The notes: generated by a model from the letters alone, not told the origin. Positions 40,276 through 57,334 are shown, counted from the first letter of the stretch. The stretch is DNA of 64,000 bases from an uncultured Verrucomicrobiae bacterium (GCA_963809845.1 CAWELO010000013.1:309665-373664), one strand, 5' to 3'. Translations and numbers: made by a program.

Positions 40276-40422
40276 CCCGGGGGCGTTAGAGCGGATGGAA
40301 GAGCGCTCGGAAGCATTGATTCGAATGCTGCGGGTATCAGGTTTTTCAATGTTCCGCATTATCCCGCCTGGACTATACTGGTGACGTTCCTATACGACTT
40401 AACGTGACCAGCCTTTGAAACT

Positions 40423-41625
40423 ATGAAAGCGCACAAATGGATTCTAGCCCTCGTCGTCAACCTGTTCGTGTTCATCGGACCAGCCGAAGCTCAACACAAT
40501 CCGTTCGACCTTTGGGCCTCGCGCAACAGCGAGACCACATGGCACTTACTGGGTGTCGCTTATGGCCATGGAACCTATGTTGCCGTTGGTGGCTTGCCAC
40601 CGTTCGACCCTTCAGGACCAATCCAGGCCAGCCTGCTCAGCTCCCCAGATGGAGTTACCTGGACCAAGCTGGCCCTGCCAACCAACGCCAACTTTTACGG
40701 GGTTTCTTGCGTGAATGACCGATTTATCGCGGTTGGGGATTTCGGATTGATCATGGCTTCACCCGACGGTGTATCCTGGGCTCTCCAAAACAGTTCGGCC
40801 CAAAATGCCACGAGCGATATCTATCCCCTGGGAGGCGTTGCTTTCGGTAACGGGACCTACGTGGCCATGGACCGATTGCTGGGGAATAATTGCTTGGTAT
40901 CTGCGGATGGCACCAATTGGGTCACCCGCACGCTTCAGTCAGGATCCAGTTTTGTCGAGATGGATCGAGTTCACTTCGATAATGGCTTGTTCGTGGCTGG
41001 CGGCTTGGTGAACAACGCTGCCATCCTCACCTCAACCAATGGTGTAAACTGGATCCCGCACCTCAGTCCATTGCCCGGCAGCGGCATCAATGACTTGGCG
41101 TATGGGGCGGGGCGCTGGGTTGCAGTTGGGGATCTTGCTGGTGTCATAACCTCTAGCAATGCGCTTACCTGGACGAAAGTTCAAGTCCCGGCTGCCTTAA
41201 CCCAGACAAACATCAATTTCCATGGCATTGTTTACAGCGACGGTTTCTTTGTGGTTGTCGGGGATTCCGGCACGGTTTTGACCTCACCAGATGGGTTGAA
41301 TTGGATTTCCCGGTCGTCACCGGGCACCGCGGCACTAAACGCGATTGCTTTTGGCACCGGCTCGCTCGTCGCGGTTGGGCTGTCCGGCGTCGTCTGGCAA
41401 TCGGCACCCATCCTGCACCTCACCGTCGGCTGGCAAAACGAAGGCGCAAACCTAACCCTCTCCTCGCCGTCCGGTCTCAACTGTGTCGTGCAAACGTCAA
41501 GCGATCTGATCAATTGGACCAACCTGTTTTCCATCCCCATGACCCAAACAACACAGACCTTGCTGGACACGAATGCATTGACATCACCGCAACGATCATA
41601 TCGAGCAATCACCCAAACCCAATGA
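40423..41625 (+). CDS. secreted beta-propeller (S-x-DG-xx-W repeat) protein with C-terminal beta module
   Basis: signal peptide; repeats V-A-Y/F-G-x-G-x-Y/F-VAVG...SPDGxxW; ends QTSSDLINW...RSYRA. Confidence 0.8.
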   Translation: MKAHKWILALVVNLFVFIGPAEAQHNPFDLWASRNSETTWHLLGVAYGHGTYVAVGGLPPFDPSGPIQASLLSSPDGVTWTKLALPTNANFYGVSCVNDRFIAVGDFGLIMASPDGVSWALQNSSAQNATSDIYPLGGVAFGNGTYVAMDRLLGNNCLVSADGTNWVTRTLQSGSSFVEMDRVHFDNGLFVAGGLVNNAAILTSTNGVNWIPHLSPLPGSGINDLAYGAGRWVAVGDLAGVITSSNALTWTKVQVPAALTQTNINFHGIVYSDGFFVVVGDSGTVLTSPDGLNWISRSSPGTAALNAIAFGTGSLVAVGLSGVVWQSAPILHLTVGWQNEGANLTLSSPSGLNCVVQTSSDLINWTNLFSIPMTQTTQTLLDTNALTSPQRSYRAITQTQ

Positions 41626-41797
41626 GCTTGGGCCATCACATTCAACCAAACCGAGAGAATTGGTAAGTGAAAGAACCCAAAGGCAAGTTCCGGTGCATCG
41701 GTTCATCGCTTGGGTCCCGCTCTTACGGTTTGGATTGGAAACAAGAAACCCCGCAAGCTCTCTTTCAAACCTCGACTTGGAAACCCGTGGAACTCCC

Positions 41798-42616
41798 ATG
41801 AATGAGGTAAATCTGATCCAAACGCAACCGACTGGCTTGAAGCTGCCACCCGCCGGCAGGGGTGTAATGTTCTATTGGGCCGTGTGCTGCCTGTGGTGGG
41901 GGCTGATGATGATCTGCTTTGCGACCTTCTACCACCGAAAGGTTTCGGGTGAGGCGGGCCATCTGACCTACAGAGACCGGATCGACCTGCTGCCGATCAT
42001 CCTGGTAACAGTGGTTTACCTGTCGCTCGTGGTCGTGCTACTGCTCCGGTTGCGCAAACGGTTCCGCGGGACGACCACCCGCCGGACGACCCGAGGTCTT
42101 TTGCATCTGCTCGTCGCTTCGCACGATGGCAGGCATCTCACGTTCCGAACCCCCCTGGAACGCGTCGTATTTGCGGGGGTGTGTTGCCTTTTCGCGGCCG
42201 CGGTTTCAGCTCTCAGCTTGATTCAGGCGGGTCCAACAAACGTTGCGGCGTTGATCCTCTCACTCATGCTTGTCGGTTCTATTTACGGTGTCGCTGCCTG
42301 GAGAAACGAACTTTATGTGAATCTGGAAGCCCGGTTCTTTCACCGCCGCCGGGGACTTTGGCCCCTCTACCGCGATTGGCACGGCTCCCTTTCGGAAGTC
42401 TCTCATGTCGCCATCGTTTGGCAGGGCACAGGCTTCGGCGGCAAATTACGTCGCGCCTATCTCATCTGGCGTGAACCAGGTGTTCCGCGGTTTCTGTATT
42501 GTGATGCATTGGCTGGCCTGCCCGTCTTCCAAGCAGCGCAACGGTTTGCCAAGACGCTGGCCGTTCCCCTGGAGGACAAGACGGGCGCTTTGCCGGAACC
42601 CCACGGGGAAACTTGA
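41798..42616 (+). CDS. hypothetical membrane protein
   Basis: four hydrophobic segments; no recognised motif. Confidence 0.6.
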   Translation: MNEVNLIQTQPTGLKLPPAGRGVMFYWAVCCLWWGLMMICFATFYHRKVSGEAGHLTYRDRIDLLPIILVTVVYLSLVVVLLLRLRKRFRGTTTRRTTRGLLHLLVASHDGRHLTFRTPLERVVFAGVCCLFAAAVSALSLIQAGPTNVAALILSLMLVGSIYGVAAWRNELYVNLEARFFHRRRGLWPLYRDWHGSLSEVSHVAIVWQGTGFGGKLRRAYLIWREPGVPRFLYCDALAGLPVFQAAQRFAKTLAVPLEDKTGALPEPHGET

Positions 42617-42622
42617 TGCCCC

Positions 42623-42961
42623 GTGATGAAGGTGACATTCCCGATCGCCTACACGATTCCCGAGCTGCGGGGATTCAATGGACAGCAGTTGTTCCGTGTC
42701 TGCAAACACTGTCATCCACGCGGCTACAATTGGTTTCTCATCCACTACCTGATGTTCGTCGGCCTGCTTGCCCTTTCCATAATTGAGGCTCTTTTGGTTC
42801 CAACCTGGGACGACGGCACGATCGGGTCGTGGCTCGCCCGGGCGGTTATTCTCCTGGCGCCTGTCGCCGTCGCAAACCTGTATTTCCACCTCGTATTTCG
42901 TGGAAGCCGGAAGCACCTGCAAGAGTTCATTCAAGCGCACAAACACGAGCTCGGATTATGA
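42623..42961 (+). CDS. hypothetical membrane protein
   Basis: two TM segments; closely spaced with neighbours. Confidence 0.55.
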   Translation: MMKVTFPIAYTIPELRGFNGQQLFRVCKHCHPRGYNWFLIHYLMFVGLLALSIIEALLVPTWDDGTIGSWLARAVILLAPVAVANLYFHLVFRGSRKHLQEFIQAHKHELGL

Positions 42962-42980
42962 TTCAACTCGCCAGGAAACC

Positions 42981-43250
42981 ATGAAGAGGTGGGTTCCCAT
43001 CCTGGCGGGGTTTGGTGCGGGCATTGTTTTGGCGTTCTGCTTGCTTTGCCTCAAGTCAAGACCCACCGAAGACACGTTCCTTGAAGCCCCGGTGAACTGG
43101 GCCATGAGCGTTCTCGAGCGTTCAATTCCGGCGCTTGGCTTCGGAGCAGTGTTAGTGTTTTTCCTGGTTTGGCTTTTATACTGGTCTTGCCTTGGCGCAC
43201 TCCTTGGCCTGCTCCTGCAATCCGCCCTTCGGTTATTCCGCAGAATTTAG
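42981..43250 (+). CDS. small hypothetical membrane protein
   Basis: CAGGAAACC-ATG; MKRWVPILAGFGAG..., hydrophobic. Confidence 0.55.
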   Translation: MKRWVPILAGFGAGIVLAFCLLCLKSRPTEDTFLEAPVNWAMSVLERSIPALGFGAVLVFFLVWLLYWSCLGALLGLLLQSALRLFRRI

Positions 43251-43272
43251 CCCACCATGGCCGGCAGAAAAA

Positions 43273-43307
43273 GGGTCAAGCCCTAACAAAGTGCGTCTTC
43301 CTTGACA
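43273..43307 (+). mobile_element. orphan left end of RAYT-like element
   Basis: GGGTCAAGCCCTAACAAAGTGC-N7-TTGAC, matching 43747-43780 which precedes a RAYT gene start. Confidence 0.65.
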
Positions 43308-43355
43308 GCCTCGCCGACGGCGGCGGCCTGATGTGTGATGCGCAATTGGGTGTCT

Positions 43356-43608
43356 ATCCCGAAGGGATCTGAGCACTCAGCCCAGGGTTGCCCCGCTCTT
43401 CCGCAGGAAGGGCGGGGCTACCCTGGGTCAACACGGCGTTGAGGATTATTTACCCTGAAAGGGTTTCAGCACCCCCGGTCCGGGGCTTCGCTCCAACCCT
43501 TTGCAGGGTTGACATTGGTTTGGGCACGCCAACCCAGGGTAGCTCGCGGACTCGCAACCCTGGGCTGAGTGCTCCCTATCCTTTCAGGATAACCGAAGGG
43601 ATCTGAGC
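43356..43608. repeat. composite REPIN-like element
   Basis: perfect 21-bp inverted arms 43371-43391 / 43554-43574, inner arms GCTACCCTGGGT / ACCCAGGGTAGC, four short hairpins, and a 16-bp direct repeat CCGAAGGGATCTGAGC at 43359 and 43593. Confidence 0.85.
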
Positions 43609-43726
43609 CTCCAAACCGGGCCTGGTCGTCGAGGCGGCGCGGGGTCGGGCGTAGCGGCACCGGAACATAGTATTTCAATTCTCACGTTCTTTCTTTCTCC
43701 AGTGGAGCAAATGCGCCACGAAAAAC

Positions 43727-44086
43727 GGGTCAAGCCTTAACAGATTGGGTTAACCCCTAACAAAGTGCATTGGGTTTGACGAGGCGAGCAGCTCTGGTCA
43801 ATCTGGATTTCATGCCGCGCCCATTGCGCAGCCAGTACCACGGCGCGATGTACCATCCTCCTTCGCCGTGGGCTACGGCGGGACAGGCGTCATGAGCCGA
43901 GGCAATCGGCGAGAGGACATTTTCCTGGATGACGTGGACCGCCATGACTTCTTGAAAACCTTGGCCGAGGCCTGTCAGAAAACCGGGTGGCAGGTGCACG
44001 CCTATGCGCCACCTCGTTCCTGTGCAGACTGCCCAGGCGACACTCCGTTGATGAAAGAAACCGACGCTTGTTACGGCACCCCTTTT
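43727..44086 (+). mobile_element. degenerate RAYT-like (Y1 HUH) transposase mini-element
   Basis: doubled left end, ATG 43812 MPRPLRSQYHGAMYH[32-nt insert]VMSRGNRREDIFLDD...GWQVHAY, cut off before the HUH motif; degenerate right end TTGTTACGGCACCCCTTTT. Confidence 0.85.
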
Positions 44087-44179
44087 CTTTGACCTGTTAC
44101 TGCTGTCAACAGTCTTTTTTTAACCAAATTCCACTTTTCTGGCAGGAAGCGCAGAAAACCACCCCCAACCGAGAGATTT

Positions 44180-44205
44180 ATCTTGCAATTCTCGTTTTGC
44201 AAGAT
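44180..44205. promoter_or_regulatory. palindromic operator upstream of the HTH-peptidase gene
   Basis: ATCTTGCAA-N8-TTGCAAGAT perfect 9-bp inverted repeat overlapping TTGCAA-N17-TATTTT. Confidence 0.65.
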
Positions 44206-44256
44206 TATTTTCCTCCGCCTAGTTAGAATCGCAACGAACACGACCACAAACCGCGC

Positions 44257-45399
44257 ATGAACCATTTCGCCAGCCAAGTCGGAGAGCGTATCCGTTTGGC
44301 CCGTGAGGCCAAGGGTGTGACGCAGGAGGCGTTCGCCAAGGCACTGGGCCACAACAATCACCAAACCGTTTCCGCAATTGAAACCGGCATCCGCCAGCTA
44401 CAGCCCGAAGAGCTCGCCCGTGCCTGCCAAATCCTCGCAAAGCCCCTCTCGTTTTTTACCGACCCGTACGTAGTCACAGAAACGAGGGCCTTTTCATACC
44501 GGGCCAAGCCCAACTCCCAGGACATCGACGCCTTCGAGAAGAAGGCCCATAACCTTATCTCCGCGAACCGGCGCTTCAGGGAAGTCCTCGACGAGCCCGC
44601 CGCGCCCATCGGACAGCAACTCCGAGGACTCACGCGCCAATCAACGCTTTACCAAGCCACCCTCCTCGGCCAGCAAATCTCGAAGGCACTCAGACTCGGC
44701 GACGCCCCAGCCGTGAAACTCCGGGAAGCCATCGAAACCGCGTGCAAAGTCATGGTGCTTTTCGTGGACGCGCCGCAAAGTATTTCCGGCGCGGCCTGCC
44801 ACCTGGCTGACGGCGACTTCATCCTCATTAACAGGACCGAAGTATCGTTCCGTCGCCATTTCGACCTCGGGCACGAGTTTTTCCACATCCTCACCTGGAT
44901 CGAAATGCCGCCCGAGCGGCTTGACCCGGAGTTGGAAGGCAAAGAAAAACCAAAGATCGAGAAACTCGCCGACGCGTTCACCGCCGGCCTGCTCATGCCA
45001 TACGAGGTCGTGTCGAAAGGCTGGCAGTCCCGCCAACCCAACCAGGACATTCACGACGCCATTCTGGCGTTGGCGAACGAACTGCGCGTTTCAGGCCCGG
45101 CTATGTACTGGCGCTTGGTCAACACCTCCCTGCTCAGCAACACCGAGCAGGAATCCGTTGACACCGACAAACTCAGCCGCCCGGACGACAACGACCCGTC
45201 CGGCCGGCCAAATCTCTTCAACGCTGACTTCGTCCGCCGCCTTCACGCCGTGCTTCAACGCGGGCTTCTAAGCGCACGCAAGGCGTCCGAATTGTTGGAC
45301 TGCGACCCGGACGATCTCCGCACCATCTGCGCAGCCTACGGGCACCCTTCACCCGTTTGCGCCCCAACCCTTCCAACGAATGCCCCCGCACCAGGCTAG
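44257..45399 (+). CDS. XRE HTH + ImmA/IrrE (M78) metallopeptidase fusion
   Basis: GERIRLARE..GVTQ..A..LG....TVSAIETG.R HTH; RRHFDLGHEFFH (HExxH); EKLADAF.AGLLMP. Confidence 0.92.
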   Translation: MNHFASQVGERIRLAREAKGVTQEAFAKALGHNNHQTVSAIETGIRQLQPEELARACQILAKPLSFFTDPYVVTETRAFSYRAKPNSQDIDAFEKKAHNLISANRRFREVLDEPAAPIGQQLRGLTRQSTLYQATLLGQQISKALRLGDAPAVKLREAIETACKVMVLFVDAPQSISGAACHLADGDFILINRTEVSFRRHFDLGHEFFHILTWIEMPPERLDPELEGKEKPKIEKLADAFTAGLLMPYEVVSKGWQSRQPNQDIHDAILALANELRVSGPAMYWRLVNTSLLSNTEQESVDTDKLSRPDDNDPSGRPNLFNADFVRRLHAVLQRGLLSARKASELLDCDPDDLRTICAAYGHPSPVCAPTLPTNAPAPG

Positions 45400-45732
45400 A
45401 GTCCTGGTTGACACCAACGCATTCCAGGCAGCCCACCGCTACGGCTGTTGGGCGGCGCTGCACAAGTCCTTTCGACTCGAAACCGCCGAGCACTGCATTG
45501 AAGAAGCCTTGCGTCCGAACCGGAAAGGCAAGCGCCTCGTTGACCGGCCCCGGGACGATCTCACAGAGGAGATTCTCGCTCACGCCGTCACCGACTCCCA
45601 AAGGGCGGTCCTGCTCCACGCGCTGCAAGGCCGCGTGGATCTTGACGACGGCGAACGCGACCTCCTCTCCATTGCACTCACCATCAAGACCGACGTATGG
45701 TGGCTGTGCGGCCCGGACAAGGCGACCGTCTT
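45380..45732 (+). pseudogene. PIN-like domain protein, 3'-truncated (ORF track reads through to 45892 into unrelated DNA)
   Basis: VLVDTN, CIEE, LDDGE, LCGPDKA acidic PIN pattern; sequence after ...DKATVF switches to an IS fragment. Confidence 0.7.
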
Positions 45733-45825
45733 CTGCAGTCGCTCCAACGCCAATACCAGCGCCTATCCGGCAGCCTGGCCGGGATCGGCTACATTAGCCA
45801 AGGTTCGGTGGTGGATCGCTCAATG
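45733..45825 (+). pseudogene. N-terminal fragment of IS accessory ORF (DUF6788-like)
   Basis: translates LQSLQRQYQRLSGSLAGIGYISQGSVVDRSM, which I recognise as the part normally preceding the GYQWTRKV motif seen at 55383-55616; family assignment is from recall. Confidence 0.5.
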
Positions 45826-45905
45826 CGAATTGGCCGACGGGCGTTTACGGAACCGCTGCCCAATTTGTCGCTCTGACGAATCGGGCAAATGATGTCACCA
45901 CGCCG

Positions 45906-48900
45906 TTGGGAACCAGTGAGTATCTTGCCTCTGGTGATAGTTTTCTGTTCTTATCCGGAGGAACAAACGCCTCGTCTGCGACTGAATTCTATGGTGCGGC
46001 CACAGGCGTTCTGACCCTCAGTTACAATGCGTCAGGGGCTACCGTGACGGCGTATTATAATGGAGCTCCCGTTGGAAGTTACTCTTTGACCAATTGGGGA
46101 TCCAACCCGCCGTTAACTCTCCTCGTCCTTTGTTTCTCGGGTGAGATTGTAGATGTCCCTGCGGGCACGGTTACGGCAAGCAATTTTTCTGTCAGCGTGT
46201 CGTCAGTCAGCACTCCTCTAGGCGTGACAACAACTTCGCTACCGAATGGAGCGAATGGCGTGTCCTACAACCAAACGTTGACAGCATCCGGCGGACAAAC
46301 TCCCTACAGTTGGACGAACATTTCCGGCGGTTTGCCACCGGGGTTGAGTCTCGCGACCAATGGCATCATCTCGGGAACGCCGACGACCAACGGGACGTTC
46401 AATTTCACCGTCGGGGTCACGGATGCCACCAACAGCACAGCGTCGCTGGCGTTGACCCTGACGGTGATTGCTACCAACAATCTGCTCTTGAATGGCGGTT
46501 TTGAAACCGGAGATTTCACCGACTGGACATTGTCTGGCGACATTAGTCGCACTTTTGTGGACGATGGCTCTCGATCTGGATTCACCCCCCACTCAGGCAG
46601 TTATCTGGCAATATTGGGAACCTCCGGAAACCTCGGCTATATTTCTCAGACCTTGTCCACGACTCCCGGCACAAGTTATTTGCTATCATTTTTTCTCAAA
46701 AACAGGTTTTTAGACCCTGTAAGCTTCCTTGTGTCATGGAATGGAAACGCCCTTTTCAATGTAACTAATTATAGCATATCAGGTTGGGGGTACCAGCAAC
46801 TTACGGCTACGGCTACGGGACTCAACACCATAATTCAAATCGGGTTTGAAGATGATTTTCAAGAATTCGCACTGGATGACATTAGTGTCGTGACGTTGGG
46901 ACCCGCGCCACTGTCGGTGACCACGACTTCCCTCCCCACCGGCGTGGACGGTTTTTTCTATGGTCAACAATTGTCTGCTCTAAGCGGACACCCGCCTTAT
47001 AGTTGGTCGTTGATATCCGGTTCTTTGCCACCTGGTTTGACTCTGGCTGCCAATGGCTTAATCTCCGGGATGCCGACAACCAACGGCGCCTTTAATTTCT
47101 CGGTCCAAGTGACCGACGCCACCAGCCGCACAGCAACGCAGCCTTTGACCTTGAGAGTTGGCAGTCCCCCCAGCGCTACGATTACACCTGCAAATAGTTC
47201 GGTCGCGATTCCGGTGGGGAGCGGTGTGAGCTTTGGCGTGTCGGTGACGGGCACCGGCCCCTTCAGTTACCTATGGCAGTTCTATGGAAGCAACCTCCCC
47301 AACGGCATCATCGTCACGGCAGCGGGAGGATATCTGGGCAACGGCGTCCCGGCGACCAACGCCAGTCTGAGTTCCGATTCCGGCGTGGCTGTGGACTCCA
47401 AGGGCAACCTGTTCGTTGCGGATTACTACAACAACGTCATCCGTGAGGTGGGCACAAACGGAATTATCACCACCGTAGCAGGCAACGGAGTTTATGGTTA
47501 TTCCGGCGACGGCGGCCCGGCGACCAGCGCCAGCCTCGCTTTCCCTTCCGGCGTTGCGGTGGACGCTAGCGGCAACCTGTTCTTTGCGGATTCAGGCAAC
47601 AGCCGCATCCGCAAGGTGAGCCCCAACGGGGTTATCACCACGGTGGCAGGTGGTGGAAGCAACTATTTCGGCAACGGCGGCCCGGCGACCAATGCCGTTC
47701 TAGGTACTCCTTCCGGCGTGGCAGTGGACGTCAGCGGCAACCTGTTCATTGCGGAACCCGTGTTTGTCCGCAAGGTGAGCGCCAACGGGCTTATCAGCAT
47801 GGTGGCAGGCGGTGGAACCAACTATCCCGGCAACGGCGGCCTGGCGACCAACGCCAGCCTCGTTTCCCCTTCCGGCGTTGCGGTGGACGCCAACGGCAAC
47901 CTGTTCATTGCGGATCGCTATCACAGCCTTATTCGCGAGGTGGGCACGAATGGCATCATCACCACGGTGGCGGGCAACGGGATAAGCGGTTACTCCGGCA
48001 ACGGCGGCCTGGCGACCAATGCCAGCCTATATAACCCTTCAGGCGTTGCGGTGGACGCCCGCGGCAACCTGTTCATTGCGGATCGCTATAACAACCTTAT
48101 TCGCGAGGTGGGCACGAATGGCATCATCACCACGGTGGCGGGCAACAGGATGAGCGGTTACTCCGGCGACAGTGGCCTGGCGACCAATGCCAGCCTAGCT
48201 AATCCTTCGGGCGTGGCAGTGGACATCAGCGGCAACCTGTTCATTACGGATAATATACGCATCCGCGAGGTGGGCACGAACGGAATTATCAATACCGCAG
48301 CGGGTGGATATTTTGGCAACAGGGTCCCAGCGACCAACGCTATTCTAACTAACCCTTTAGGCGTGGCAGTGGACGTCCGCGGCGACCTGTTCATTGCGGA
48401 TTCTGGCAACGACGTCGTCCGTGAGGTGGACACATACGGGGTTATCACCACCATAGCAGGCAACAGAGTTGCCGGTTATTCCGGCGACGGCGGCCTGGCG
48501 ACCAATGCCAGCCTACATACCCCTTCCGGCGTCGCGGTAGACGTCAGCGGCAACCTGTTCATTGCGGATTCGTATAACACCGTCATCCGCGAGGTGGACA
48601 CCAACGGCATTATCACCACGGTGGCAGGCGGCGGAGCCAGCCAACCCGGCGATGGCGGCCTTGCGACCAATGCCAGCCTTGCTTTCCCTTCCGGCGTTGT
48701 GGTGGACGGCAACGGCAACCTGTTCATTGCGGATGCTGGCAGCGAGGTTATCCGCAAGGTGAGCGCCAATGCGGTTATTACCACCGTGGCAGGTAACGGG
48801 ACAAACAGTTACACCGGCGACGGCGGCCCGGCGACCAATGCCAGCCTCGCCAGCCCTTCCGGCATGGCAGTGGACGTCAGCGGCAACTTGTTCATTGCAG

Positions 48901-49619
48901 ACTTCGGCAACAACGTCATCCGCGAGGTGGGCACCAATGGAATTATCACCACCATGGCAGGCAATGAAGTTTACGGTTATTCCGGCGACGGCGGCCCGGC
49001 GACCAATGCCAGCCTCGCCAGCCCTTCCGGCGTGGCAGTGGACGCCAATGGCAACCTGTTCATTGCGGATTCTGGCAACAATGTCATTCGCGAGGTGGAC
49101 ATCAACGGTACTATCACCACCATGTCAGGCAACGGAGTTGCCGGTTATTCCGGCGATGGCGGTGCGGCGACTAATGCCGAATTGTGGAATCCCGTGGGCG
49201 TGGCAGTGGACGCCAACGGAAATGAGTTCATCGCGGATGCGGGTAACAACCGCATCCGCGAAGTCAGTTTGTACTTTTTAAGTTCGACACTTATATTGAA
49301 TGATGTGGGTTTCGGAAATGCTGGGGCGTATGACGTGGTTGTTTCCAACCCTTATGGCAGCGTCACGAGCAGCGTGGTAAACCTGACCATCACGCTTCCT
49401 GCCATCGTTCTTTCAACTCCCCAAATAACCGTTGGCAATAACAGTTTTGCGTTTCAGCTTTCCGGTCCTTCCGGCAGCAGCTACGTGCTACAAGTCTCCA
49501 CGAACCTGGTCAACTGGAGTTCGGTTAGCACTTCCGCCATACCTGTGAGTGGATCAATCACATTGAGCAATGCCATCGGCGGCTCCAACCGCCGCTTTTA
49601 CCGGGTTTATCTGCCATGA
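45906..49619 (+). CDS. large exoprotein: putative Ig (He_PIG) domains, carbohydrate-binding-like jelly roll, 12 NHL repeats inside an Ig domain, C-terminal beta module; probably 5'-truncated
   Basis: TTTSLP...GGLPPGLSL...G.ISGTPT twice; NGGFETGDFT.W; 12 x AT(N/S)A.L...GVAVD..GNLFIAD-type repeats; no signal peptide at the TTG start. Confidence 0.88.
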   Translation: MGTSEYLASGDSFLFLSGGTNASSATEFYGAATGVLTLSYNASGATVTAYYNGAPVGSYSLTNWGSNPPLTLLVLCFSGEIVDVPAGTVTASNFSVSVSSVSTPLGVTTTSLPNGANGVSYNQTLTASGGQTPYSWTNISGGLPPGLSLATNGIISGTPTTNGTFNFTVGVTDATNSTASLALTLTVIATNNLLLNGGFETGDFTDWTLSGDISRTFVDDGSRSGFTPHSGSYLAILGTSGNLGYISQTLSTTPGTSYLLSFFLKNRFLDPVSFLVSWNGNALFNVTNYSISGWGYQQLTATATGLNTIIQIGFEDDFQEFALDDISVVTLGPAPLSVTTTSLPTGVDGFFYGQQLSALSGHPPYSWSLISGSLPPGLTLAANGLISGMPTTNGAFNFSVQVTDATSRTATQPLTLRVGSPPSATITPANSSVAIPVGSGVSFGVSVTGTGPFSYLWQFYGSNLPNGIIVTAAGGYLGNGVPATNASLSSDSGVAVDSKGNLFVADYYNNVIREVGTNGIITTVAGNGVYGYSGDGGPATSASLAFPSGVAVDASGNLFFADSGNSRIRKVSPNGVITTVAGGGSNYFGNGGPATNAVLGTPSGVAVDVSGNLFIAEPVFVRKVSANGLISMVAGGGTNYPGNGGLATNASLVSPSGVAVDANGNLFIADRYHSLIREVGTNGIITTVAGNGISGYSGNGGLATNASLYNPSGVAVDARGNLFIADRYNNLIREVGTNGIITTVAGNRMSGYSGDSGLATNASLANPSGVAVDISGNLFITDNIRIREVGTNGIINTAAGGYFGNRVPATNAILTNPLGVAVDVRGDLFIADSGNDVVREVDTYGVITTIAGNRVAGYSGDGGLATNASLHTPSGVAVDVSGNLFIADSYNTVIREVDTNGIITTVAGGGASQPGDGGLATNASLAFPSGVVVDGNGNLFIADAGSEVIRKVSANAVITTVAGNGTNSYTGDGGPATNASLASPSGMAVDVSGNLFIADFGNNVIREVGTNGIITTMAGNEVYGYSGDGGPATNASLASPSGVAVDANGNLFIADSGNNVIREVDINGTITTMSGNGVAGYSGDGGAATNAELWNPVGVAVDANGNEFIADAGNNRIREVSLYFLSSTLILNDVGFGNAGAYDVVVSNPYGSVTSSVVNLTITLPAIVLSTPQITVGNNSFAFQLSGPSGSSYVLQVSTNLVNWSSVSTSAIPVSGSITLSNAIGGSNRRFYRVYLP

Positions 49620-49671
49620 ATCATTAAGCCATTCCATCTGGATTAGGGTGGAAACCAGAAAATGGAAAATG

Positions 49672-50396
49672 GGTCAACCCATAGTTTGGTGCGTTTTATC
49701 GATTGAAATGCGTCTATGTTCCTCAGCAGCCTGATCGCGTGCCTCGCAAACTGCGTCTCCAATACCCTGGGGCCATGTATCACGCCATGAGCAGAGGGGA
49801 CCGTCAGGAGAGAATCTTCCTCGATGCGGTGGACCGGCAGGATTTCATCAAGACTCTGGCCGAGGCCTGCCAGAAGAGCGGCTGGCAGGTGCACGCCTAC
49901 TGCCTCATGCCCAATCACTATCACTTGGTCATCGAGACCCCGGAACCCAATTTAGTAGCCGGGATGGCGTGGCTGCAGAGCACCTACACCATCCGGCTGA
50001 ACCATCGCCATCAACTCTTCGGGCACGTGTTCAGCGGAAGATATAGAGCTCAATTGGTCGAGGGCAGTGGCAACGGTTATCTCAGGACCGCTTGTGACTA
50101 CGTGCATCTCAACCCGGTGCGGGCTGGGATGCTCAAGGCCGAAGACCGGCTCCTGTCTTATCCCTGGAGCAGCTTCGGAGCGTACTTGGCGTCGCCGGAA
50201 CATCGGCCCGGCTGCGACGGGAAACCACGCTGTCGATCAAGGCGATCGCCGCGCGCGTGGGGTTTGGAACATCCAAAACAGCGAACGCGAAGCTCCACCG
50301 CCACATGCGTCGGGCAAAGGCAGGCGAGACAAACCAGCCCCAGCCGGGCATCCCAAGGGTGTGAAGTGGAGAAACGAACCAAACTATGGGTTGACC
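49672..50396 (+). mobile_element. RAYT-like Y1 transposase element bounded by 25-bp inverted repeats
   Basis: GGTCAACCCATAGTTTGGTGCGTTT (49672-49696) vs AAACGAACCAAACTATGGGTTGACC (50372-50396), 24/25 complementary. Confidence 0.85.
49739..50364 (+). pseudogene. RAYT-like Y1 HUH transposase with apparent internal deletion (C-terminal HTH out of frame)
   Basis: MYHAMSRG, YCLMPNHYHL (HUH), GHVFSGRY, DYVHLNPVRAG (catalytic Tyr), YPWSS; after ~50210 another frame gives RLRRETTLSIKAIAARVGFGT...* to 50364. Confidence 0.88.
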
Positions 50397-50492
50397 GCTT
50401 TTGAGATTCAACGGGCGCGGGAGGCGTTAGCGCGCCAAAACCTATAATATCACGCATTTGAAGGACAGCACACTAGGTTTTCGGAGTAGATG

Positions 50493-51728
50493 TCACCGCT
50501 CTCGGAAATGGATTAAAACGATTTCGGATTTAGTGCCAACGCGCATTGGGACGCCCCAAGTTCCCGCGCCGCTGCTCGTGTAAACCAGCAGTTTGCCGAA
50601 ACGATTTAGTCCGCTGTTAAACCGCCCGTGAACGAGCGCCGCCACCCACGTCCAAGGCCAGACCTGTCCGCCGTGGGTGTGGCCGGAAAGCTGCAGTGAA
50701 ATGCCCGCCTCGTCGGGGATGGCCAAATTCGACGGCTGATGCGCGAGCAAGATGCTGGCGCGGCTCCCATCCAGTTCCGCCTGTCGTAAGAGCGTGCGAA
50801 ACTGTCGCGGATCGTCGGCTTCGCCGTCATGCACGCCCACGATCTGCAATCCATGAACGTCCACTTTCTCGTTATTCAAAACGCGGATGCCGACGCGCTG
50901 CACGGCAGCGATTAGGTTCGCGCGGTCGCCGAATTCCTCATGATTGCCGGTAACATAAAAAATTCCAGCCGGGGCGGATATTGTTTTCCACGGTTCGATC
51001 AACTTGTCGGGATTTGCCTCTGGCCCGTCAAACAAATCACCACTGATGAAGACGGCGTCGGGCTGCAAACTTTGAAGCTTTGCGACGACGCTGCGGGCGA
51101 AGCGGGCACTTCGGACACTGCCCAGATGCAGGTCGGTCACGAGCGCCACCGTGCGACCCCGCCAGGCGGCAGGCAGGTTTGGCAGGTTCACGGAGATACT
51201 TGTGATTCTCAGCCGGCTCGCGTTCCAAAGTCCGTAAATACTGGCAAGCATCGCCCCGCCAAAAAATGTTTCGGCGACGATCTTCGGTTCAAAATGGAAG
51301 GACGAAAGTGTGGCTGTTACTGAAACAATCCAGATTGAATAAGCTGCGAAAAAACTGAAATTCAGGATCCCCAGCCAGACCGCAGAAATCAGATACAACA
51401 GCCGTAGTCCAAAGCTGGAGTAGCGCCGTCCCAGAAAGGTCGTGGTGATGAACGCCAAAGTCAGTCCGGGGGGAACAATCTCCCACATCGGCACTGCGGT
51501 TATTCCCAGAAAATGATTCCAAGTCGCAAAAACAAACCAATTGGCCGATAACAAAACGGAAAGGACCATGGTCACAACAACAGTGATTCGTAAACGTGGG
51601 ACGCCGGGAGTGCGGGCAGCGGAATCCGCAGTGTCCGCCTCGAACGCCGCCGGGTTTTCAATTTTGGAAGCTGGCATGGAAATTAGTTTGGGTATCGGTG
51701 CTGCGCTTTCCGGTTGAGTAGTCAACAC
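50493..51728 (-). CDS. membrane-bound metallophosphoesterase (YkuE-like)
   Basis: N-terminal TMs; TDLHLG, SGDLFD, TGNHE, LAHQP, SGHTHGGQ; start may be ATG 51677. Confidence 0.92.
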   Translation of the reverse strand: MLTTQPESAAPIPKLISMPASKIENPAAFEADTADSAARTPGVPRLRITVVVTMVLSVLLSANWFVFATWNHFLGITAVPMWEIVPPGLTLAFITTTFLGRRYSSFGLRLLYLISAVWLGILNFSFFAAYSIWIVSVTATLSSFHFEPKIVAETFFGGAMLASIYGLWNASRLRITSISVNLPNLPAAWRGRTVALVTDLHLGSVRSARFARSVVAKLQSLQPDAVFISGDLFDGPEANPDKLIEPWKTISAPAGIFYVTGNHEEFGDRANLIAAVQRVGIRVLNNEKVDVHGLQIVGVHDGEADDPRQFRTLLRQAELDGSRASILLAHQPSNLAIPDEAGISLQLSGHTHGGQVWPWTWVAALVHGRFNSGLNRFGKLLVYTSSGAGTWGVPMRVGTKSEIVLIHFRER

Positions 51729-51757
51729 CGTTCGCCAGCCATTGACCGGCCACTATC

Positions 51758-51773
51758 AGTCAGGCAACTGACT
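51758..51773. promoter_or_regulatory. putative TetR operator 1
   Basis: AGTCAG-GCAA-CTGACT palindrome just downstream of a minus-strand TTGACA (51805-51810). Confidence 0.75.
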
Positions 51774-51908
51774 CTCTTAATATCATTAAGCGGAGAGATT
51801 CATTTGTCAACAGGGGAATGTTGCGCTGCCGCCAATGCTCCTTAAGAAATGCCAAAAAGCACTCTTCTGACCGGATTGACGAAGGCCCATGAGATGCTTT
51901 AGAGTGGC

Positions 51909-51924
51909 AGTTAGTTGGCTGACT
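51909..51924. promoter_or_regulatory. putative TetR operator 2 (autoregulatory)
   Basis: AGTTAG-TTGG-CTGACT, 11 nt before tetR ATG. Confidence 0.65.
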
Positions 51925-51935
51925 GTCTTAAAACT

Positions 51936-52502
51936 ATGGCGAAGCAAATAAATTCCAAGGTTCGGACAAGACTGATTCAGGCCGCCGTGAGCCTTGCCCA
52001 CCGGCATGGTTTTGAACACACCACGCTGGTAGAAATTGCCAAGGCGGCAAAAGTTCCTCCAGGCAACCTGTATTACTATTTCAAAACGAAGGACGAAATC
52101 GGCGACGCAATTGTGGAGCGACGACTCTCCGAATTGTCCGCCATGAAAACTGAACTCGGCAAGGTGGTCTCCCCTAAAGAACGCCTCTGCAGTTTTGCCC
52201 TGATGTCGCTCAAGGGGCGGGAAATCGTGGCGCAACACGGATGTCCGATTGGGACTTTTTGCTCGGAATTAAACAAGGGGGGAGGATCGTTGGCCCAAAA
52301 GGCATCACGGATCGTTACTGACATCCTGGCGTGGGTCGAGTCTCAATTCCTGGAGTTTTGTGCAAAGGATGAAGCGCGAGGGCACGCGGTGCATCTGGTG
52401 TCGGCGCTCCAAGGGGCATCTGTCTTGGCTAACTGCTCTAAAGATCCCGATTTGATTAAGATGGAGGCCACACGGATCGTTGGCTGGCTTCGCTCTTTGT
52501 AA
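51936..52502 (+). CDS. TetR/AcrR family regulator (NemR/LmrA-like)
   Basis: RLIQAA..L....GFEHTTL.EIA.AA.V..GNLYYYFKTKDE; GCPIG. Confidence 0.93.
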   Translation: MAKQINSKVRTRLIQAAVSLAHRHGFEHTTLVEIAKAAKVPPGNLYYYFKTKDEIGDAIVERRLSELSAMKTELGKVVSPKERLCSFALMSLKGREIVAQHGCPIGTFCSELNKGGGSLAQKASRIVTDILAWVESQFLEFCAKDEARGHAVHLVSALQGASVLANCSKDPDLIKMEATRIVGWLRSL

Positions 52503-52553
52503 GGCGAGTTTTCACTTTCTGAATTCGGTCCAAAGGAAGTTTTAATTTCGACG

Positions 52554-52604
52554 TTGACAACACGATTAACTCGTTTACCTTTCCAGTCAGTCAGTTGCCT
52601 GACT
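52554..52604 (+). promoter_or_regulatory. promoter plus putative TetR operator 3 upstream of SDR genes
   Basis: TTGACA-N16-TACCTT then AGTCAG-TTGC-CTGACT (52589-52604), the exact reverse complement of operator 1. Confidence 0.75.
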
Positions 52605-52693
52605 CAGTTGCGACGACCGCCGACTGAACGGATGCTGCGAATGTGAGGAAGGCGCCGTCGTTTGAAGCAAACCCGCAACCGCAGAATTGAAAC

Positions 52694-53476
52694 ATGCGGA
52701 AAATTATGCAAAAATTAACAGGAACCGGTGACGGGAAGTTTAGTGGCAAGGTTGCCGTTATCATCGGCGGCACCAGCGGCATGGGGCTCGCCACGGCGAA
52801 GATGCTCCTCGATGGGGGTGCGCGTGTTCTGGTGACGGGGCGGTCGCAGGCCGGCCTGGAATCGGCGCAGAAAGCGCTTGGAAAGGACGCCCTCGTGGTT
52901 TCGAGCGACGCGCGGTCGTTGACGGACATCGACGCCCTCGCCTCTCGGGTGAAGGCCGAGTTCGACACCTTCGACCTGCTCTCCGTCAGCGCCGGGTTCA
53001 GCATCCGAGCGCCTCTTGAGAGCATAACCGAGGCTGTTTACGATGAGATGTTCAACCTGAACGCCAAGGGACCGCTTTTCGCGGTGCAGAAGCTCGCGCC
53101 GCTGATCAACCGGGGAGGCTCTGTCGTCTTCACGACCTCGGTCGCCAACGTCAAGGGAATGCCCGGCAACGCCGCATACGGAGCGGCCAAGGCCGCGGTG
53201 CGATCCTTCGCTCGGACGCTCGCCGCCGAGTTGCTTCCTCGCGAGATTCGCGTCAACGCGGTGACGCCCGGTCCCATCGACACGCCGATCATCGCTAAAG
53301 TGTTTACTGGTAAAGACGAGGCCGCCCAGATGAGGGAGAAGATGATCGGTATGGTCCCGATGAAGCGCTGGGGGACGTCGGAGGAAATCGCCAAGGCCGT
53401 CCTCTTCCTCGCGTTCGATGCGACCTTCACGACCGGCGCCGAGATTCCCGTGGATGGAGGATGGTCTCAACTATAA
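52694..53476 (+). CDS. short-chain dehydrogenase/reductase
   Basis: GGTSGMG, YGAAK (YxxxK), IRVNAVTPGPIDTP, VDGG. Confidence 0.93.
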   Translation: MRKIMQKLTGTGDGKFSGKVAVIIGGTSGMGLATAKMLLDGGARVLVTGRSQAGLESAQKALGKDALVVSSDARSLTDIDALASRVKAEFDTFDLLSVSAGFSIRAPLESITEAVYDEMFNLNAKGPLFAVQKLAPLINRGGSVVFTTSVANVKGMPGNAAYGAAKAAVRSFARTLAAELLPREIRVNAVTPGPIDTPIIAKVFTGKDEAAQMREKMIGMVPMKRWGTSEEIAKAVLFLAFDATFTTGAEIPVDGGWSQL

Positions 53477-53490
53477 ACAGGATAGGAAAA

Positions 53491-54417
53491 ATGAACGAAA
53501 GTATCTTAATAACCGGAGCAAATGCTGGGCTTGGGAAAGAGACTGCCCGACAGTTAGCATTGAAAAAAGAAACAAAAAAGGTAATTCTTTTTTGCAGAAA
53601 TCAAGCGAGGGCAGAGGCAGCAAAAAAAGACCTTGAGGAGAAAACGGGGAAAAAGATTTTTGAGATTATTATTGGGGATGTTACGGATGCAAATTCTGTA
53701 AGAAAAGCAGTAGAAACAATAAAGGAACCTGTTGATGCAATAGTTTTAAATGCAGGTGGAGTAATTGGGAAAACGGCTGCGAAATCTACGCCTTCCGGAA
53801 TGAATCAATTAGCTGCTACGAATATTTTGGGAAATGTAATTTTAGCGGAGGAATTAATTAAACGGGACAGTTTAAGGAAAACAGTTCTATCAGTCAGTGC
53901 GGAAGCTGTTCCGGGAGTAAAGATGCTCGGAGTAAAACCAGTTTCAATGAGGACTTCTTCTGTAGATGAGTTTGCTGCTGTTCTTGATGGATCATATTTT
54001 GGTAATAAGTTCAATGCATTGCAAGCATACGCATACGTCAAGTATGCAGAAACCATGTGGACGTTATCAATGGCAAGAAAATATCCTAAGCTCAAGTTTA
54101 TTGTTGTGAGCCCGGGAAATACAAAAGGAACTCAGGCGCCAGATAGTCTTCCCCCGGCAATGCGGTTTATGTTGAAGTATGTGATGATGCCTATTGTATT
54201 CCCATTGATGGGGGGAATGGTGCATACGCTGGAAGTAGGTGCAAAACGCTTTGTAGATGCCATTTCGGATGAGCGGTATAAAAGCGGCGTTTTTTATGCC
54301 AGTAAAGAAGGTAAGTTATCAGGGGACATGGTGGACCAGAGCACCTTTTTTACGGATTTGAAAAATACTTCATTTCAAGATAACGCCAACGAGGCAATTC
54401 ACCATTTCATAAATTAG
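53491..54417 (+). CDS. short-chain dehydrogenase/reductase (AT-rich gene)
   Basis: ILITGANAGLG, LNAGG, YAYVK, VSPG. Confidence 0.88.
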   Translation: MNESILITGANAGLGKETARQLALKKETKKVILFCRNQARAEAAKKDLEEKTGKKIFEIIIGDVTDANSVRKAVETIKEPVDAIVLNAGGVIGKTAAKSTPSGMNQLAATNILGNVILAEELIKRDSLRKTVLSVSAEAVPGVKMLGVKPVSMRTSSVDEFAAVLDGSYFGNKFNALQAYAYVKYAETMWTLSMARKYPKLKFIVVSPGNTKGTQAPDSLPPAMRFMLKYVMMPIVFPLMGGMVHTLEVGAKRFVDAISDERYKSGVFYASKEGKLSGDMVDQSTFFTDLKNTSFQDNANEAIHHFIN

Positions 54418-54555
54418 TCCTGAAAAGTAGTGGTTCTTCATATCTGAGTCACACCTGAACGGTGTCGTCCCGAAGAACCGCCCAATCCCGCTTTTGGATC
54501 TTTCCGCCCATCGCTGTCATTCCCCACCGCAAAACATAACTCAAGTAAAACGACT

Positions 54556-55125
54556 ATGAAAAACGCGTTCCATCATCACCTATGCATCGTCTTCCTGGTT
54601 TGCATATTGCCCATGACCCTAATGGCTGCCACTCCTCCTAAAGTGGGTGACAAAGCGCCGGATTTCACGCTCAACACCCTGGACCGTCAGAGTGTGCGCT
54701 TGAGTGACGTAACGCCCAAGGGCAAAACTGTTCTTATTGTCTTGCGTGGATGGCCCGGCTACCAGTGCCCTTTCTGCACGCAACAGGTCCAAGACTACAT
54801 CAAATCGGAATCTGAATTCGCGGGAAGCCATGCGCGAGTCCTGATGGTTTACCCCGGACCGGCGGATACCCTAATAGCGCACGCCAAAGAATTCCTCAAC
54901 AACAAGGATTGGCCCAAGGATTTCACCTTCGTCATCGATCCAGCGTTTAACATGGTTAACGCTTACGGTTTGCGCTGGGACGCACCAAACGAAACGTCTT
55001 ACCCCTCCACTTTCATTTTGGATCAAAAAGGAATCGTTCGCTTTGCGAAAATCAGTCATAGCCACAGTGATCGAACAAAAGCGGCCGCCATCGTTGATGA
55101 ACTCGATTGCATGCACGATGAATGA
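54556..55125 (+). CDS. secreted AhpC/TSA peroxiredoxin-like protein
   Basis: signal peptide, VGDKAPDFTL, RGWPGYQCPFC, YPSTFILD. Confidence 0.85.
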   Translation: MKNAFHHHLCIVFLVCILPMTLMAATPPKVGDKAPDFTLNTLDRQSVRLSDVTPKGKTVLIVLRGWPGYQCPFCTQQVQDYIKSESEFAGSHARVLMVYPGPADTLIAHAKEFLNNKDWPKDFTFVIDPAFNMVNAYGLRWDAPNETSYPSTFILDQKGIVRFAKISHSHSDRTKAAAIVDELDCMHDE

Positions 55126-55180
55126 ACGAGAGGAAATGATCATACTTCGACCTGAAACTGAGGACAGAATAGCACAAAAC

Positions 55181-55342
55181 ACTCGGCATTGAGCTTGCCG
55201 GACGGCGAATCCGCGTCAACGTTATCAGCCCCGGCCCGGTCACCACGCCCATCCTTGGAAAAATGGGAATGCCCAAGGAGATGGTCGACCCGATGGCGGC
55301 GGGGATTGTCCAGCAAGTGCCGCTCAAACGTTTCGGCGAAGC
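55181..55342 (+). pseudogene. SDR C-terminal fragment
   Basis: LGIELAGRRIRVNVISPGPVTTPILGK...VPLKRFGE without an N-terminus. Confidence 0.75.
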
Positions 55343-55373
55343 AGTCATAAAAGGGATAAAAGGGGTCAACCCA

Positions 55374-56065
55374 GAATGGCGCTTAAATAGCGCGCAAAAC
55401 ATTTTTGTTCAAGGGCTTGCGTCGGTGCGTATCGGGTAAGGAGTCGAAGAGTATCCTGCGGGATAGGTTCTCCATTTTGATCAGGGTTCTGGCTAACCGA
55501 CGCCGATTCTCTATCGCCTTTCCAATCCCTTGGAACTGCTCCGGGCTCAGTGCGACGGTGACCGTTTTTTGGGCCACCTTTCTGGTCCATTGGTAGCCTG
55601 AACGGGGGTGGCGCAAGGGGATTCCCGCGCTGATGCGCCTGCACCACGCGCGCAGCGCCGATTTGCGTCGCGGCAAACGTTTGGGCAAAAACGACCGGCT
55701 AATCGTCTGGCGCAAGCCGCAAAATTGCGAGCGCCGGTATCTACCCCTGAGGCTGTGGAAGTGTCTGGGTCCCGAGTTATCCGTACGGATTTTGCGCTAT
55801 ACGCTGCGACGTCGGGGTTTCCGGACTCGCTCGGTGACGCTGGTTACCACGCTGCTGGATCCGGAGCGTTACCCGGCCGAGCAACTCGCTCTGCTCTATG
55901 CCAGGCGCTGGCAAATCGAGCTGTGGTTTCGCGATATCAAAACCTCCATGGGCATGGAGGTGCTGCGTTGCCAGAGCCCGAAAATGATCCACAAAGAATT
56001 GGAAATGTTTTTCATCGCCTACAATCTGATCCGCTGTTTGATGATCCAGGCCAGCCGAGCCCAGG
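55374..56065 (+). mobile_element. IS4-family remnant with internal deletion (end GAATGGCGCTTA, opposite-strand accessory ORF fragment, DDE transposase fragment)
   Basis: 55383-55616(-) RHPRSGYQWTRKVAQKTVTVALS...; 55612-56060(+) GFRTRSVTLVTTLLD...LYARRWQIELWFRDIK (IS4 Y-2-R-3-E-6-K) ...AYNLIR. Confidence 0.85.
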
Positions 56066-56354
56066 AGGAGGATATCCGTGGAGCGGCTTTCCACTGCATT
56101 TGGCCGCGCGCGAGGATCGAGGCCCCAGCGGTGGGGGTGATGCTGGGGGGCGATGCCTGGGTTGCGAAAGGCCAGGACTCGACCGTGTGAGAGGTTCAGA
56201 TGCCGCCCGCACCCTCTCTACCAAGACAACAACCTGACTCACGCCGCCTACGCCCACCACCGCGACATCACCAACACCTGCCACGTGCCCACCCGCGCGG
56301 CGTGCCCATCCACGCATGCGCCAAAAAGCGAATTCCCATGAGCAATTCAGGCAA

Positions 56355-57284
56355 TTAGTTCTTGGACGGCAGAAAGTCCGCGGGGGCATAGGATTGGTTG
56401 ACCGAGATCTCGTTGTGAGTCTGGGTGTAGAGAACGCCTTCTTTGAAGCCGGCTTTGACGGTGGTTTGCACTTGCTTCATCATTTCTCTCATCTTCGGCC
56501 GCAAGGCGGCGATGGCTTCCGGCGTGACCGGTTGGTTTTGCATTTCCAAGGTCTTTTTCGCCGCCTGGTCGATGACTTCGTCGTTTGCGGAAAGGTCTTG
56601 AGTCACTTTCTCGAAGTATCGGTCACTGGTTTTGTGAATGAGAAAATCATTCTTGCCGATCCAAAGCTTGGTCGAGACCGTGCCGGGTTTCCCGGCCTCG
56701 GGGGTTTTGGACAAATCCGCTTCGGCGGCGATGACATAGCAGTCCACGTCGCCGACTTTCTCGTCCTTCTCCTTTGTCATTGGGAACTTCCCGGCGATGG
56801 CGGGATAGACGAACGGATCGCCCAAATTCCGGCCAAAGAACGCACTGGGAATGGTGGTGGTGATGGACATGGAGAAACCGCTCGCCGCGCCGAGCGCGTC
56901 TTTCGTGCCGGGCATTTTCTTCCTGGCAACCGGGCCGTTGCCGACCCACGAAGTGGTCTGGTAAAAATCACCGTCGCCATCGGACCACGCCATGCCGTTA
57001 TCAGCCGGCAGGCCGGGCATGAGGCCCTTTTTCTGGGTCCAATTGATCCGATAGAGACTTGGGCGCTGGAGCCGGGTGTTGAATTCGAGCGAAATCGTTT
57101 GACCTGACATTACCGTGACCACTGTCCCGCTGTCGCTATAGCTGGAAAGAGCGGCATAGGCGGCGCGGGTTTTTTGCATGATTTCGCCGGCGTCCGGTTC
57201 TTCCGCGGCCAAAGCGCCGGGGGCGAGCAGTGTCAAGGCGAGGGTTGCCGTCTGTATCAAACTTGGTGTTTTCATCGTGTTCAT
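56355..57284 (-). CDS. secreted LolA-fold-like (DUF2092-like) protein
   Basis: signal peptide; EIMQK...AYAALSSYSD.G, RP..YRI.W, WSDG, KLWIGKNDFLI; strong GGAGG RBS. Confidence 0.7.
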   Translation of the reverse strand: MNTMKTPSLIQTATLALTLLAPGALAAEEPDAGEIMQKTRAAYAALSSYSDSGTVVTVMSGQTISLEFNTRLQRPSLYRINWTQKKGLMPGLPADNGMAWSDGDGDFYQTTSWVGNGPVARKKMPGTKDALGAASGFSMSITTTIPSAFFGRNLGDPFVYPAIAGKFPMTKEKDEKVGDVDCYVIAAEADLSKTPEAGKPGTVSTKLWIGKNDFLIHKTSDRYFEKVTQDLSANDEVIDQAAKKTLEMQNQPVTPEAIAALRPKMREMMKQVQTTVKAGFKEGVLYTQTHNEISVNQSYAPADFLPSKN

Positions 57285-57300
57285 AGTTCCTTTCCTCCTC

Positions 57301-57328: not shown

Positions 57329-57334
57329 CGCATT

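Follow-up and report, generated by a model that had tools for sequence, protein, structure and literature searches.

Integron arrays carry directional sites just after genes in an accessory locus. A similar arrangement is found in a 64,000-nucleotide stretch of DNA, here called the window, from an uncultured Verrucomicrobiae bacterium (GCA_963809845.1, CAWELO010000013.1:309665-373664), where the ends of transposase-bearing elements stand among unrelated genes. An earlier reading of the sequence alone (the sequence-only reading) assigned these ends to a RAYT, a Y1 transposase usually described as single-copy and domesticated, and proposed that it captures blocks of DNA and stacks them like an integron or insertion sequence common region (ISCR) array, with no tyrosine recombinase. 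Its observation is here partly confirmed and its interpretation partly supported. The ends are the terminal inverted repeats (TIRs) of TIRtrons, elements with the transposase TIRYT (TnpA-Y1 subclass 2.1), and not those of a single-copy RAYT. The account that we favour, and consider reasonably but not strongly probable, is that the island containing them is a polarised landing zone for TIRtrons, in which whole units are copied and accumulate one way, the two ends are likely to be joined separately, neighbouring DNA is trimmed or captured as a by-product, and insertion sequence (IS) elements of IS4 type act as parasites.

Several described systems are close to this one (what is said here of published work refers to the parts of each text that were available). 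TIRYT genes are flanked by GGGGWSAS-type inverted repeats (PMC3733652). Subclass 2.1 has been equated with TIRYT, and is the second largest group of Y1 enzymes, found in 14.9% of the species sampled (PMC6006769). Among the true RAYT groups, the corresponding one, Group 1, most resembles an IS (PMC5581495), and the premise of a single-copy domesticated enzyme therefore fails for it. The source genome, which consists of 22 contigs (labelled C1 etc.), some of them broken at TIRtrons, holds 47 TIRYT loci as counted by tblastn and 54 by profile, with six intact frames; the 54 take in two loci of another RAYT class and one chimera. Its elements share with the published TIRtrons the NH[YF]H, Y[IV]HLNP and SS motifs (PMC3733652, PMC6006769, PMC5581495), a C-terminal helix-turn-helix (HTH) or DnaA-like domain, GGGGWSAS-type repeats, and the occurrence of repeats both solo and grouped. 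Published surveys give about 1.9 copies per genome with 6% duplicates, compared to about 50 remnants and recent whole-element copies here. [quoted passage not shown] Searches of the open-access literature, supplements aside, yielded no account of TIRtron mechanism, capture, a polarity shared with IS91-type origins, separate joining or IS4 targeting; TIRYT elements are listed in the supplements of the TIRtron papers, where stutters or clusters might also be described. The window element is a member of a known family that is mechanistically unstudied in the literature found.

The canonical RAYT of REPtrons (TnpA-REP, 4ER8) is the closest solved fold and shares the Y-x-x-x-NP catalytic motif. It is however single-copy, flanked by repetitive extragenic palindromes (REPs) and devoid of a DnaA-like domain, whereas the TIRtrons of the source genome are multi-copy and repeat-bounded. 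The REP-like cluster in the window is a separate dispersed family, the TIRtrons themselves being flanked by inverted repeats (no formal search for a REP tag was made). IS91 and ISCR elements resemble TIRtrons in their HUH chemistry, absence of a short target duplication, directional arrays and, possibly, occasional co-mobilisation of adjacent DNA. Their enzyme, however, is of the Y2 type, their ori and ter ends differ from each other and lack inverted repeats, and their target is 4 nt long (PMC13181058), whereas in TIRtrons the enzyme is a Y1, the inverted repeats match and no target word is evident. Finally, the TnpA-REP fragments associated with prochlorosins belong to the same subclass, and occur as full and truncated copies among variable genes; a diversifying role was proposed for them, and a later note by the authors reports no strong evidence for or against causality (10.1101/2020.03.09.984088). 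The cargo of the present island consists of unrelated genes, unlike the prochlorosin loci.

The enzyme and its terminal repeats

The enzyme copy in the window is a Y1 HUH protein with the motifs NHYH and YVHLNP. Across 52 sequences, residues H60, H62, Y121, N125, P126, S144 and S145 are invariant, the last two forming the SS motif that follows the catalytic tyrosine, and these residues fit the subclass 2.1 motifs in Table 1 of PMC6006769. Pfam identifies a C-terminal HTH as Bac_DnaA_C, HTH_23 and HTH_28 in 5, 5 and 1 of the 52 members, respectively. A structure model of an intact copy from the source genome has a predicted local distance difference test score (pLDDT) of 93. It matches TnpA-REP (4ER8) with a Z score of 17.2 and a root-mean-square deviation (rmsd) of 2.3 over 158 aligned residues, and domain IV of DnaA (1J1V) with a Z score of 8.0 (range 8.0-8.5) and an rmsd of 2.7 over 74. 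Intact TIRYT is accordingly modelled as a TnpA-REP fold joined to a DnaA-like domain.

Both elements in the window are flanked by GGGGWSAS-type inverted repeats, with the last letter of the motif varying in families A and C. In other genomes, true flanking inverted pairs were judged to be present at 54 of 78 loci, 12 of the 66 pairs found having been dropped by eye as chance or incomplete. TIRYT-related DNA occurs in 36 of 44 genomes of the family, and most of the named relatives are Verrucomicrobiota.

The bare 10-mer on which the sequence-only reading relied is not specific, having 88 matches in the genome, many of them inside genes, and a generic seven-letter core was rejected as evidence, the window having no excess of it (21 vs 27.6 expected). 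Specificity is seen with the 18-nt family ends, which have 78 matches at 0-1 mismatch, compared to none in a block-shuffled control. An end profile, trained partly on the island's own ends, gives four strong matches in the island, none in window positions 1-40275, and 0-2 in 30 shuffles. The reported motif positions (43273, 43727, 43747, 49671 and 55363, all on the plus strand) are correct, as are the inverted right ends at ~44080 (degenerate) and ~50396, and the closeness of left ends to the end of a gene or gene fragment (23, 52 and ~18 nt). That all ends share an orientation holds for the five motif sites, and fails for an end that had been missed, at 43641, which is the right end of a minus-strand TIRYT. 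Nor is 55363 a left end: it is what is left of the outer part of a repeat into which an IS4-type element has inserted, with an 11-bp duplication. Two candidate mini-ends, at 63138 and ~63395, failed the profile and were left uncounted.

Copying, polarity and joints

Whole elements recur in the source genome at 97-99% identity with unrelated flanks. Fourteen elements were queried, of which 11 have copies at an identity of at least 90%, giving 22 distinct pairs. In 21 of these pairs the bare element has moved, with no more than 17 nt shared beyond the ends. The remaining pair (L057/L093) has 1.58 kb of another IS in common, a fragment that stops at a distal repeat-like end; one member of the pair lies at the start of a contig. 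This pair may be a counterpart of the co-mobilisation seen with IS91 and ISCR, together with a 415-bp piece in the window that lies between two family-A left ends and is made up of the REP cluster and a minus-strand right end. Positions 43308-43719 are 95% identical to C1:207204-207618, and the tail piece VAHLLHWRKKEREN comes after a Y1 fragment at C1:207k as well. The 415-bp piece is the best sign of capture in the window, and is repeat DNA, not a gene. A right-to-left circle joint was found neither among four listed joints nor among 15 of the 66 in the joint table, noting that assembled contigs drop rare forms.

The elements are clustered, and face the same way within clusters, both as the sequence-only reading had anticipated. 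In the source genome 16 neighbour pairs are less than 25 kb apart, compared to 7.0 expected (P=0.0004), and the ends lie in DNA of slightly low GC content (median 0.597 vs 0.617). Neighbours closer than 25 kb are co-oriented in 15/16 cases for tblastn loci and 19/20 for profile loci, whereas those further apart are co-oriented in 7/14 and 7/17; in other genomes (78 loci) the figure is 10/11. Uniform clusters number 11 of 12, against 5.1 expected.

A 55-bp directional module, present in 41 copies in the source genome, faces the same way as its neighbours in all of 25 pairs, and the same way as the nearest TIRYT in 20 of 21. On 10 contigs from relatives the module is preceded, 336-573 nt upstream and on the same strand, by a Y2_Tnp match; it is also similar to the ISCR27 origin given in PMC8894482. 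We take it to be an IS91-type origin, and an orphan in the source genome, in which no Y2_Tnp (PF04986) match was found; the window island has no such origin. When these origins are included, 19 of 21 clusters are uniform, and the majority strand of the 21 matches a replication proxy in 11 and the local coding strand in 14. The two kinds of end also differ in their position relative to genes. On crude gene calls, left ends lie behind the 3′ end of a co-oriented gene in 20/29 cases in the source genome and 34/44 elsewhere, right ends in only 4/20 and 20/47 (Fisher p=0.0012 in each set).

The orphan origins form arrays of their own. At C8:140168-157539 (L168, L184) there are 12 co-oriented copies within 17 kb with cargo between them, and further arrays are found at C8:362-363k, C2:40-46k, C10:519-529k and C13:1-8k. 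The window resembles an ISCR-type array less closely than these do. Some orphan origins form a 96-bp chimera with a TIRtron end, behind which they are fused, and at C8:139697-140224 (L182) a chimeric frame with no family match, consisting of a TIRYT C-terminal domain and an IS91-like tail, is followed by the origin module.

At joints where the flank is a known repeat, flank homology stops short of the core, by 3-7 nt in families A and B and by ~10 nt in family F, and short target duplications were not seen at these joints. TIRtron joints often cut the flanking repeat. Stuttered ends are found at 18/54 left and 11/53 right ends, compared to 14/1080 random points. There is a 199-bp flank duplication at L064, a site that is single-copy in three related genomes, and one of 252 bp at an element on C4. 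Self-nested copies, all co-oriented, show an 84-nt deletion and a 102-nt duplication. From the long duplications, the deletions and the self-nesting we infer that the two ends are likely to be joined separately to the target on one strand, leaving duplications of 102-252 bp or deletions.

The IS4-type elements target the repeats. In the source genome 18 of 20 of their termini lie in a fixed register within the repeat core (chance 0.039 each), as do four of four in other genomes, and paired copies show 11-bp duplications. Since two of the 18 termini sit inside a group II intron, the target is the sequence and not the TIRtron element. The element at 55374 matches the DDE_Tnp_1 and IS4 models, and has terminal repeats and an 11-bp target duplication as in the IS4 family. 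The targeting of Tn4430 ends by IS231A is a parallel. The two IS4 pieces in the window, 45730-45823 and 55374-55616, come from adjacent stretches of one element type (positions 247-340 and 1-244); they are 10 kb apart, inverted, 88% and 98% identical to the reference, and share a breakpoint. At C13:106257-107660 an IS4-type copy lies within a tiny hairpin of two family-C repeats, a REP-sized TIRtron derivative.

Other repeats in the source genome adjoin these elements. Five identical 2-kb copies (C1:194373, C2:102, C5:246199, C8:160004 and C10:823299), presumably IS66-like, mostly lie within ~20 nt of a TIRtron end. RHS-like repeat fragments are joined to TIRtron ends at C3:135-152k and C12:1-2k, where a left end with 737 nt is present at two places, at 98% identity. 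A multi-copy reverse-transcriptase element resembling a group II intron is present at C2:158433-160313, C7:40832-44661 and C13:495183-497063, and one copy is interrupted by an IS4-type element.

The island and its cargo

The sequence-only reading placed the island at 40300..56350, which is too short. The gene at 63575 comes directly after an exeA/exeB-like pair in 10 of 12 relatives, and the island therefore extends to ~63450 (Table 1). Its blocks differ in base composition as described, with GC content spanning 0.41-0.63. Independent contigs, assembled from the runs of two studies and showing 0-8 differences in the cases listed, bridge the joints at 40276, 43273, 43641-43747, 50396 and 55363, so that chimeric assembly at these five joints, a concern raised earlier, is unlikely; parts of the island that lack contig coverage in those runs were not read as absence. 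The relatives returned for the source genome included none of the same genus, leaving strain-level empty sites of this island unreadable, and genus g17 was used instead for the comparison of filled and empty sites. Of six loci queried, three have empty sites, one has a conserved flank on one side of the element, and two have nothing usable near the element.

Table 1. Features of the accessory island in window coordinates, from left to right.
Feature	Position	Strand	Basis and remarks
Accessory island (~23 kb)	40276..~63450	.	Flanked by exeB-like gene and CAAX-protease/exosortase-type gene; GC; synteny
Cargo: beta-propeller-type secreted protein and three small membrane genes	40423..43250	+	Open reading frame (ORF)/domain scan
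Partial left end, TIRtron family A (~40 nt)	43268..43313	+	88% to C9:5105; 23 nt past stop codon
Palindromic dispersed REP-like cluster, separate repeat family	43308..43640	.	Many genome matches
Right end and last codons of oppositely oriented TIRYT	43641..43719	-	Tail VAHLLHWRKKEREN
Stuttered partial left-end copy	43722..43746	+	Motif/sequence
Non-autonomous TIRtron, MITE-like, family A	43744..44086	+	93-95% copies at C2:356716 and C8:365429, unrelated flanks
Cargo: HTH/IrrE-like regulator and PIN-like partner, cut at 45729	44257..45729	+	Full-length pair in genome G136 without TIRtron
IS4-type element fragment at PIN/NHL junction	45730..45823	-	88% to C13:106611-106518; joint present in independent contig
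Cargo: NHL-repeat/Ig exoprotein, apparently 5′-truncated	45906..49619	+	Domain scan
TIRtron family C, both repeats present	49666..50400	+	94-95% copy at C13:126354-125338
Cargo mosaic: metallophosphoesterase (-), TetR, two short-chain dehydrogenase/reductases (SDRs) of different origin, peroxiredoxin-like	50493..55125	.	No ends between genes
SDR-like gene fragment cut beside TIR stub	55190..55345	+	Sequence; family assigned by eye
Stuttered outer stub of family-C repeat, the 11-bp target of IS4-type element	55350..55373	+	Sequence
Deleted IS4-family element (DUF6788 gene and DDE fragment)	55374..56077	+	Domain scan
Further cargo without clear ends: exported protein, Ser/Thr kinase-RDD, extracytoplasmic function (ECF) sigma factor, secreted protein	56355..63011	-	Domain scan

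The family-C TIRtron retains its HUH and Tyr motifs. It has lost ~345 nt internally, and this deletion puts the C-terminal DNA-binding domain out of frame. After the second IS4 fragment, positions 56078-56350 are unassigned DNA with a weak match to C20:180836-180751, and at the right edge of the island (63247-63350) there is a second palindromic dispersed repeat.

The proposal that the ends delimit cargo was not borne out. Of 18 island junctions, at positions chosen by the analyst, 12 are at least 173 nt from any end, and the other six are the elements' own edges. In the filled/empty comparisons, inserts of 7.2 and 10.2 kb contain TIRtrons but have outer edges without an end, the nearest ends being ~570 and ~230 nt inside the right edge. 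Genes are indeed cut at block edges, and foreign DNA is joined to ends, but the cut in the PIN gene at 45729 was made by an IS4 piece and not by a TIR. The expected recurrence of end-bounded cargo elsewhere was not seen either. The cargo genes have no close paralogue in the source genome (best 29-50% identical), 300 other genomes searched gave no DNA match to the first block, and none of 16 loci with cargo homologues elsewhere has a TIRYT beside it (two weak profile hits; 300-genome samples, two candidates scored per genome). These homologues occur singly.

The two SDR genes have separate relatives, with divergence at the gene ends and no repeat there. In soil runs, relatives of both (52694-54417) occur at very high depth, with 88-97% identity. 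The GC content of the second is 0.41, and its homology ends at its stop codon, which suggests a recent gain from another abundant organism.

The similarity to an integron is limited to directional sites just after genes in an accessory locus. No tyrosine recombinase was found among the island ORFs scanned with Pfam, the rest of the genome being outside that scan, and there is no site per gene and no reuse of cassettes, while genes are cut. Because most junctions lack an end, the PIN cut was made by IS4 and the cargo homologues lack ends, a dedicated cassette array of integron or ISCR type is not supported, and the window is not convincing as a gene-cassette system.

How the island may have grown

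We propose the following mechanism. The DnaA-like C-terminal domain would bind the repeat, and the HUH domain would nick just outside it and transfer the nicked strand to a 3′-OH, with little target preference. Separate joining of the two ends would trim, duplicate or occasionally carry neighbouring DNA, and stutters would arise from repeated abortive joining. Local exposure of the same strand would give new insertions the polarity of the HUH ends already resident. Most of the cargo would have come by other routes (IS4, recombination) and been only trimmed by the ends.

A number of points weigh against this account. Short opposite-facing pieces exist (window 43641, C3:136238), below the counting threshold, and one counted neighbour pair, on C9, is opposite. 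Solo copies of the elements' own repeats in other genomes have no strand bias (15 vs 12). Long duplications are rare, being found at one of 66 loci in other genomes (the L064 site) and at one of 26 complete element pairs in the source genome, with one further 40-bp match. Two metagenome assemblies supplied the self-nested cases, among which there could be assembly errors. The replication proxy is weak in the source genome. In 14 of 21 clusters the polarity fits the local coding direction, and left ends lie behind co-oriented genes, so that a contribution of transcription or selection to the polarity is possible.

The last point leads to a first alternative, that elements insert anywhere and survive in dispensable islands, for the most part behind genes and along the direction of transcription, with gene direction and selection producing polarity incidentally. 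That left ends lie after co-oriented genes, that most of the cargo from 40423 to 55125 is on the plus strand and that elements move without cargo would all fit. However, 7 of 21 clusters have a polarity opposed to the local coding strand, at C8:140-157k the 12-copy array is uniform across genes of both directions, and stutters, long duplications and co-oriented self-nesting are left unexplained; we consider this alternative improbable, if still the most serious one. Capture of gene blocks by TIRYT, as the sequence-only reading proposed, would also account for the polarity and for left ends just after genes, and it draws further support from the 415-bp piece, the L057/L093 passenger and the non-conserved DNA upstream of left ends in L053, L054 and L066. 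Both shared passengers, though, are pieces of other mobile repeats and not genes, the insert edges in L053 and L054 have no ends, and the junction, PIN and cargo-homologue results given above all speak against it, making it a little less probable again.

Orientation might instead be set along the replichores by the replication fork, given that related Y1 enzymes (IS200/IS605) target the lagging-strand template (PMC6006769). All six loci on C4 agree with this, as do 21 of 30 loci with a strong proxy. Overall agreement is only 28/47, or 17/31 per cluster and 11/21 with IS91-type origins included, and islands of opposite polarity lie on stretches of the same sign (C10:520k vs 823k; C13:1-126k vs the window). 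Replication direction was rejected as the cause of polarity (GC skew 30/47, GC skew at four-fold sites 24/47, T/A skew 28/47; all of these proxies are weak), and we regard it as very unlikely. That the mosaic is merely an artefact of assembling repeats from a metagenome is hardly credible: no contig spans the whole island, and some of the 22 contigs are broken at these elements, but the bridging contigs come from the runs of two studies, and the copies and duplications have diverged (93-98%).

The landing-zone account can be extended, tentatively and with more doubt than confidence, to accessory islands in these bacteria generally. These would be polarised HUH arrays, in which a resident TIRtron or IS91-type end exposes a strand, new ends join to it singly, and DNA between the ends or beyond them is pulled in. 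The source genome has intact and recently copied elements, MITEs and dozens of readable joints, from which cut position, strand bias and separate end joining can be predicted, so that how an HUH enzyme moves an inverted-repeat element becomes a directly testable question. If the extended account is true, two unrelated families of single-strand transposases would stack foreign genes in one direction without an integrase, while an IS4 lineage parasitises the repeats, and the polarity common to TIRtrons and IS91-type origins would point to a general rule of accessory-island growth.

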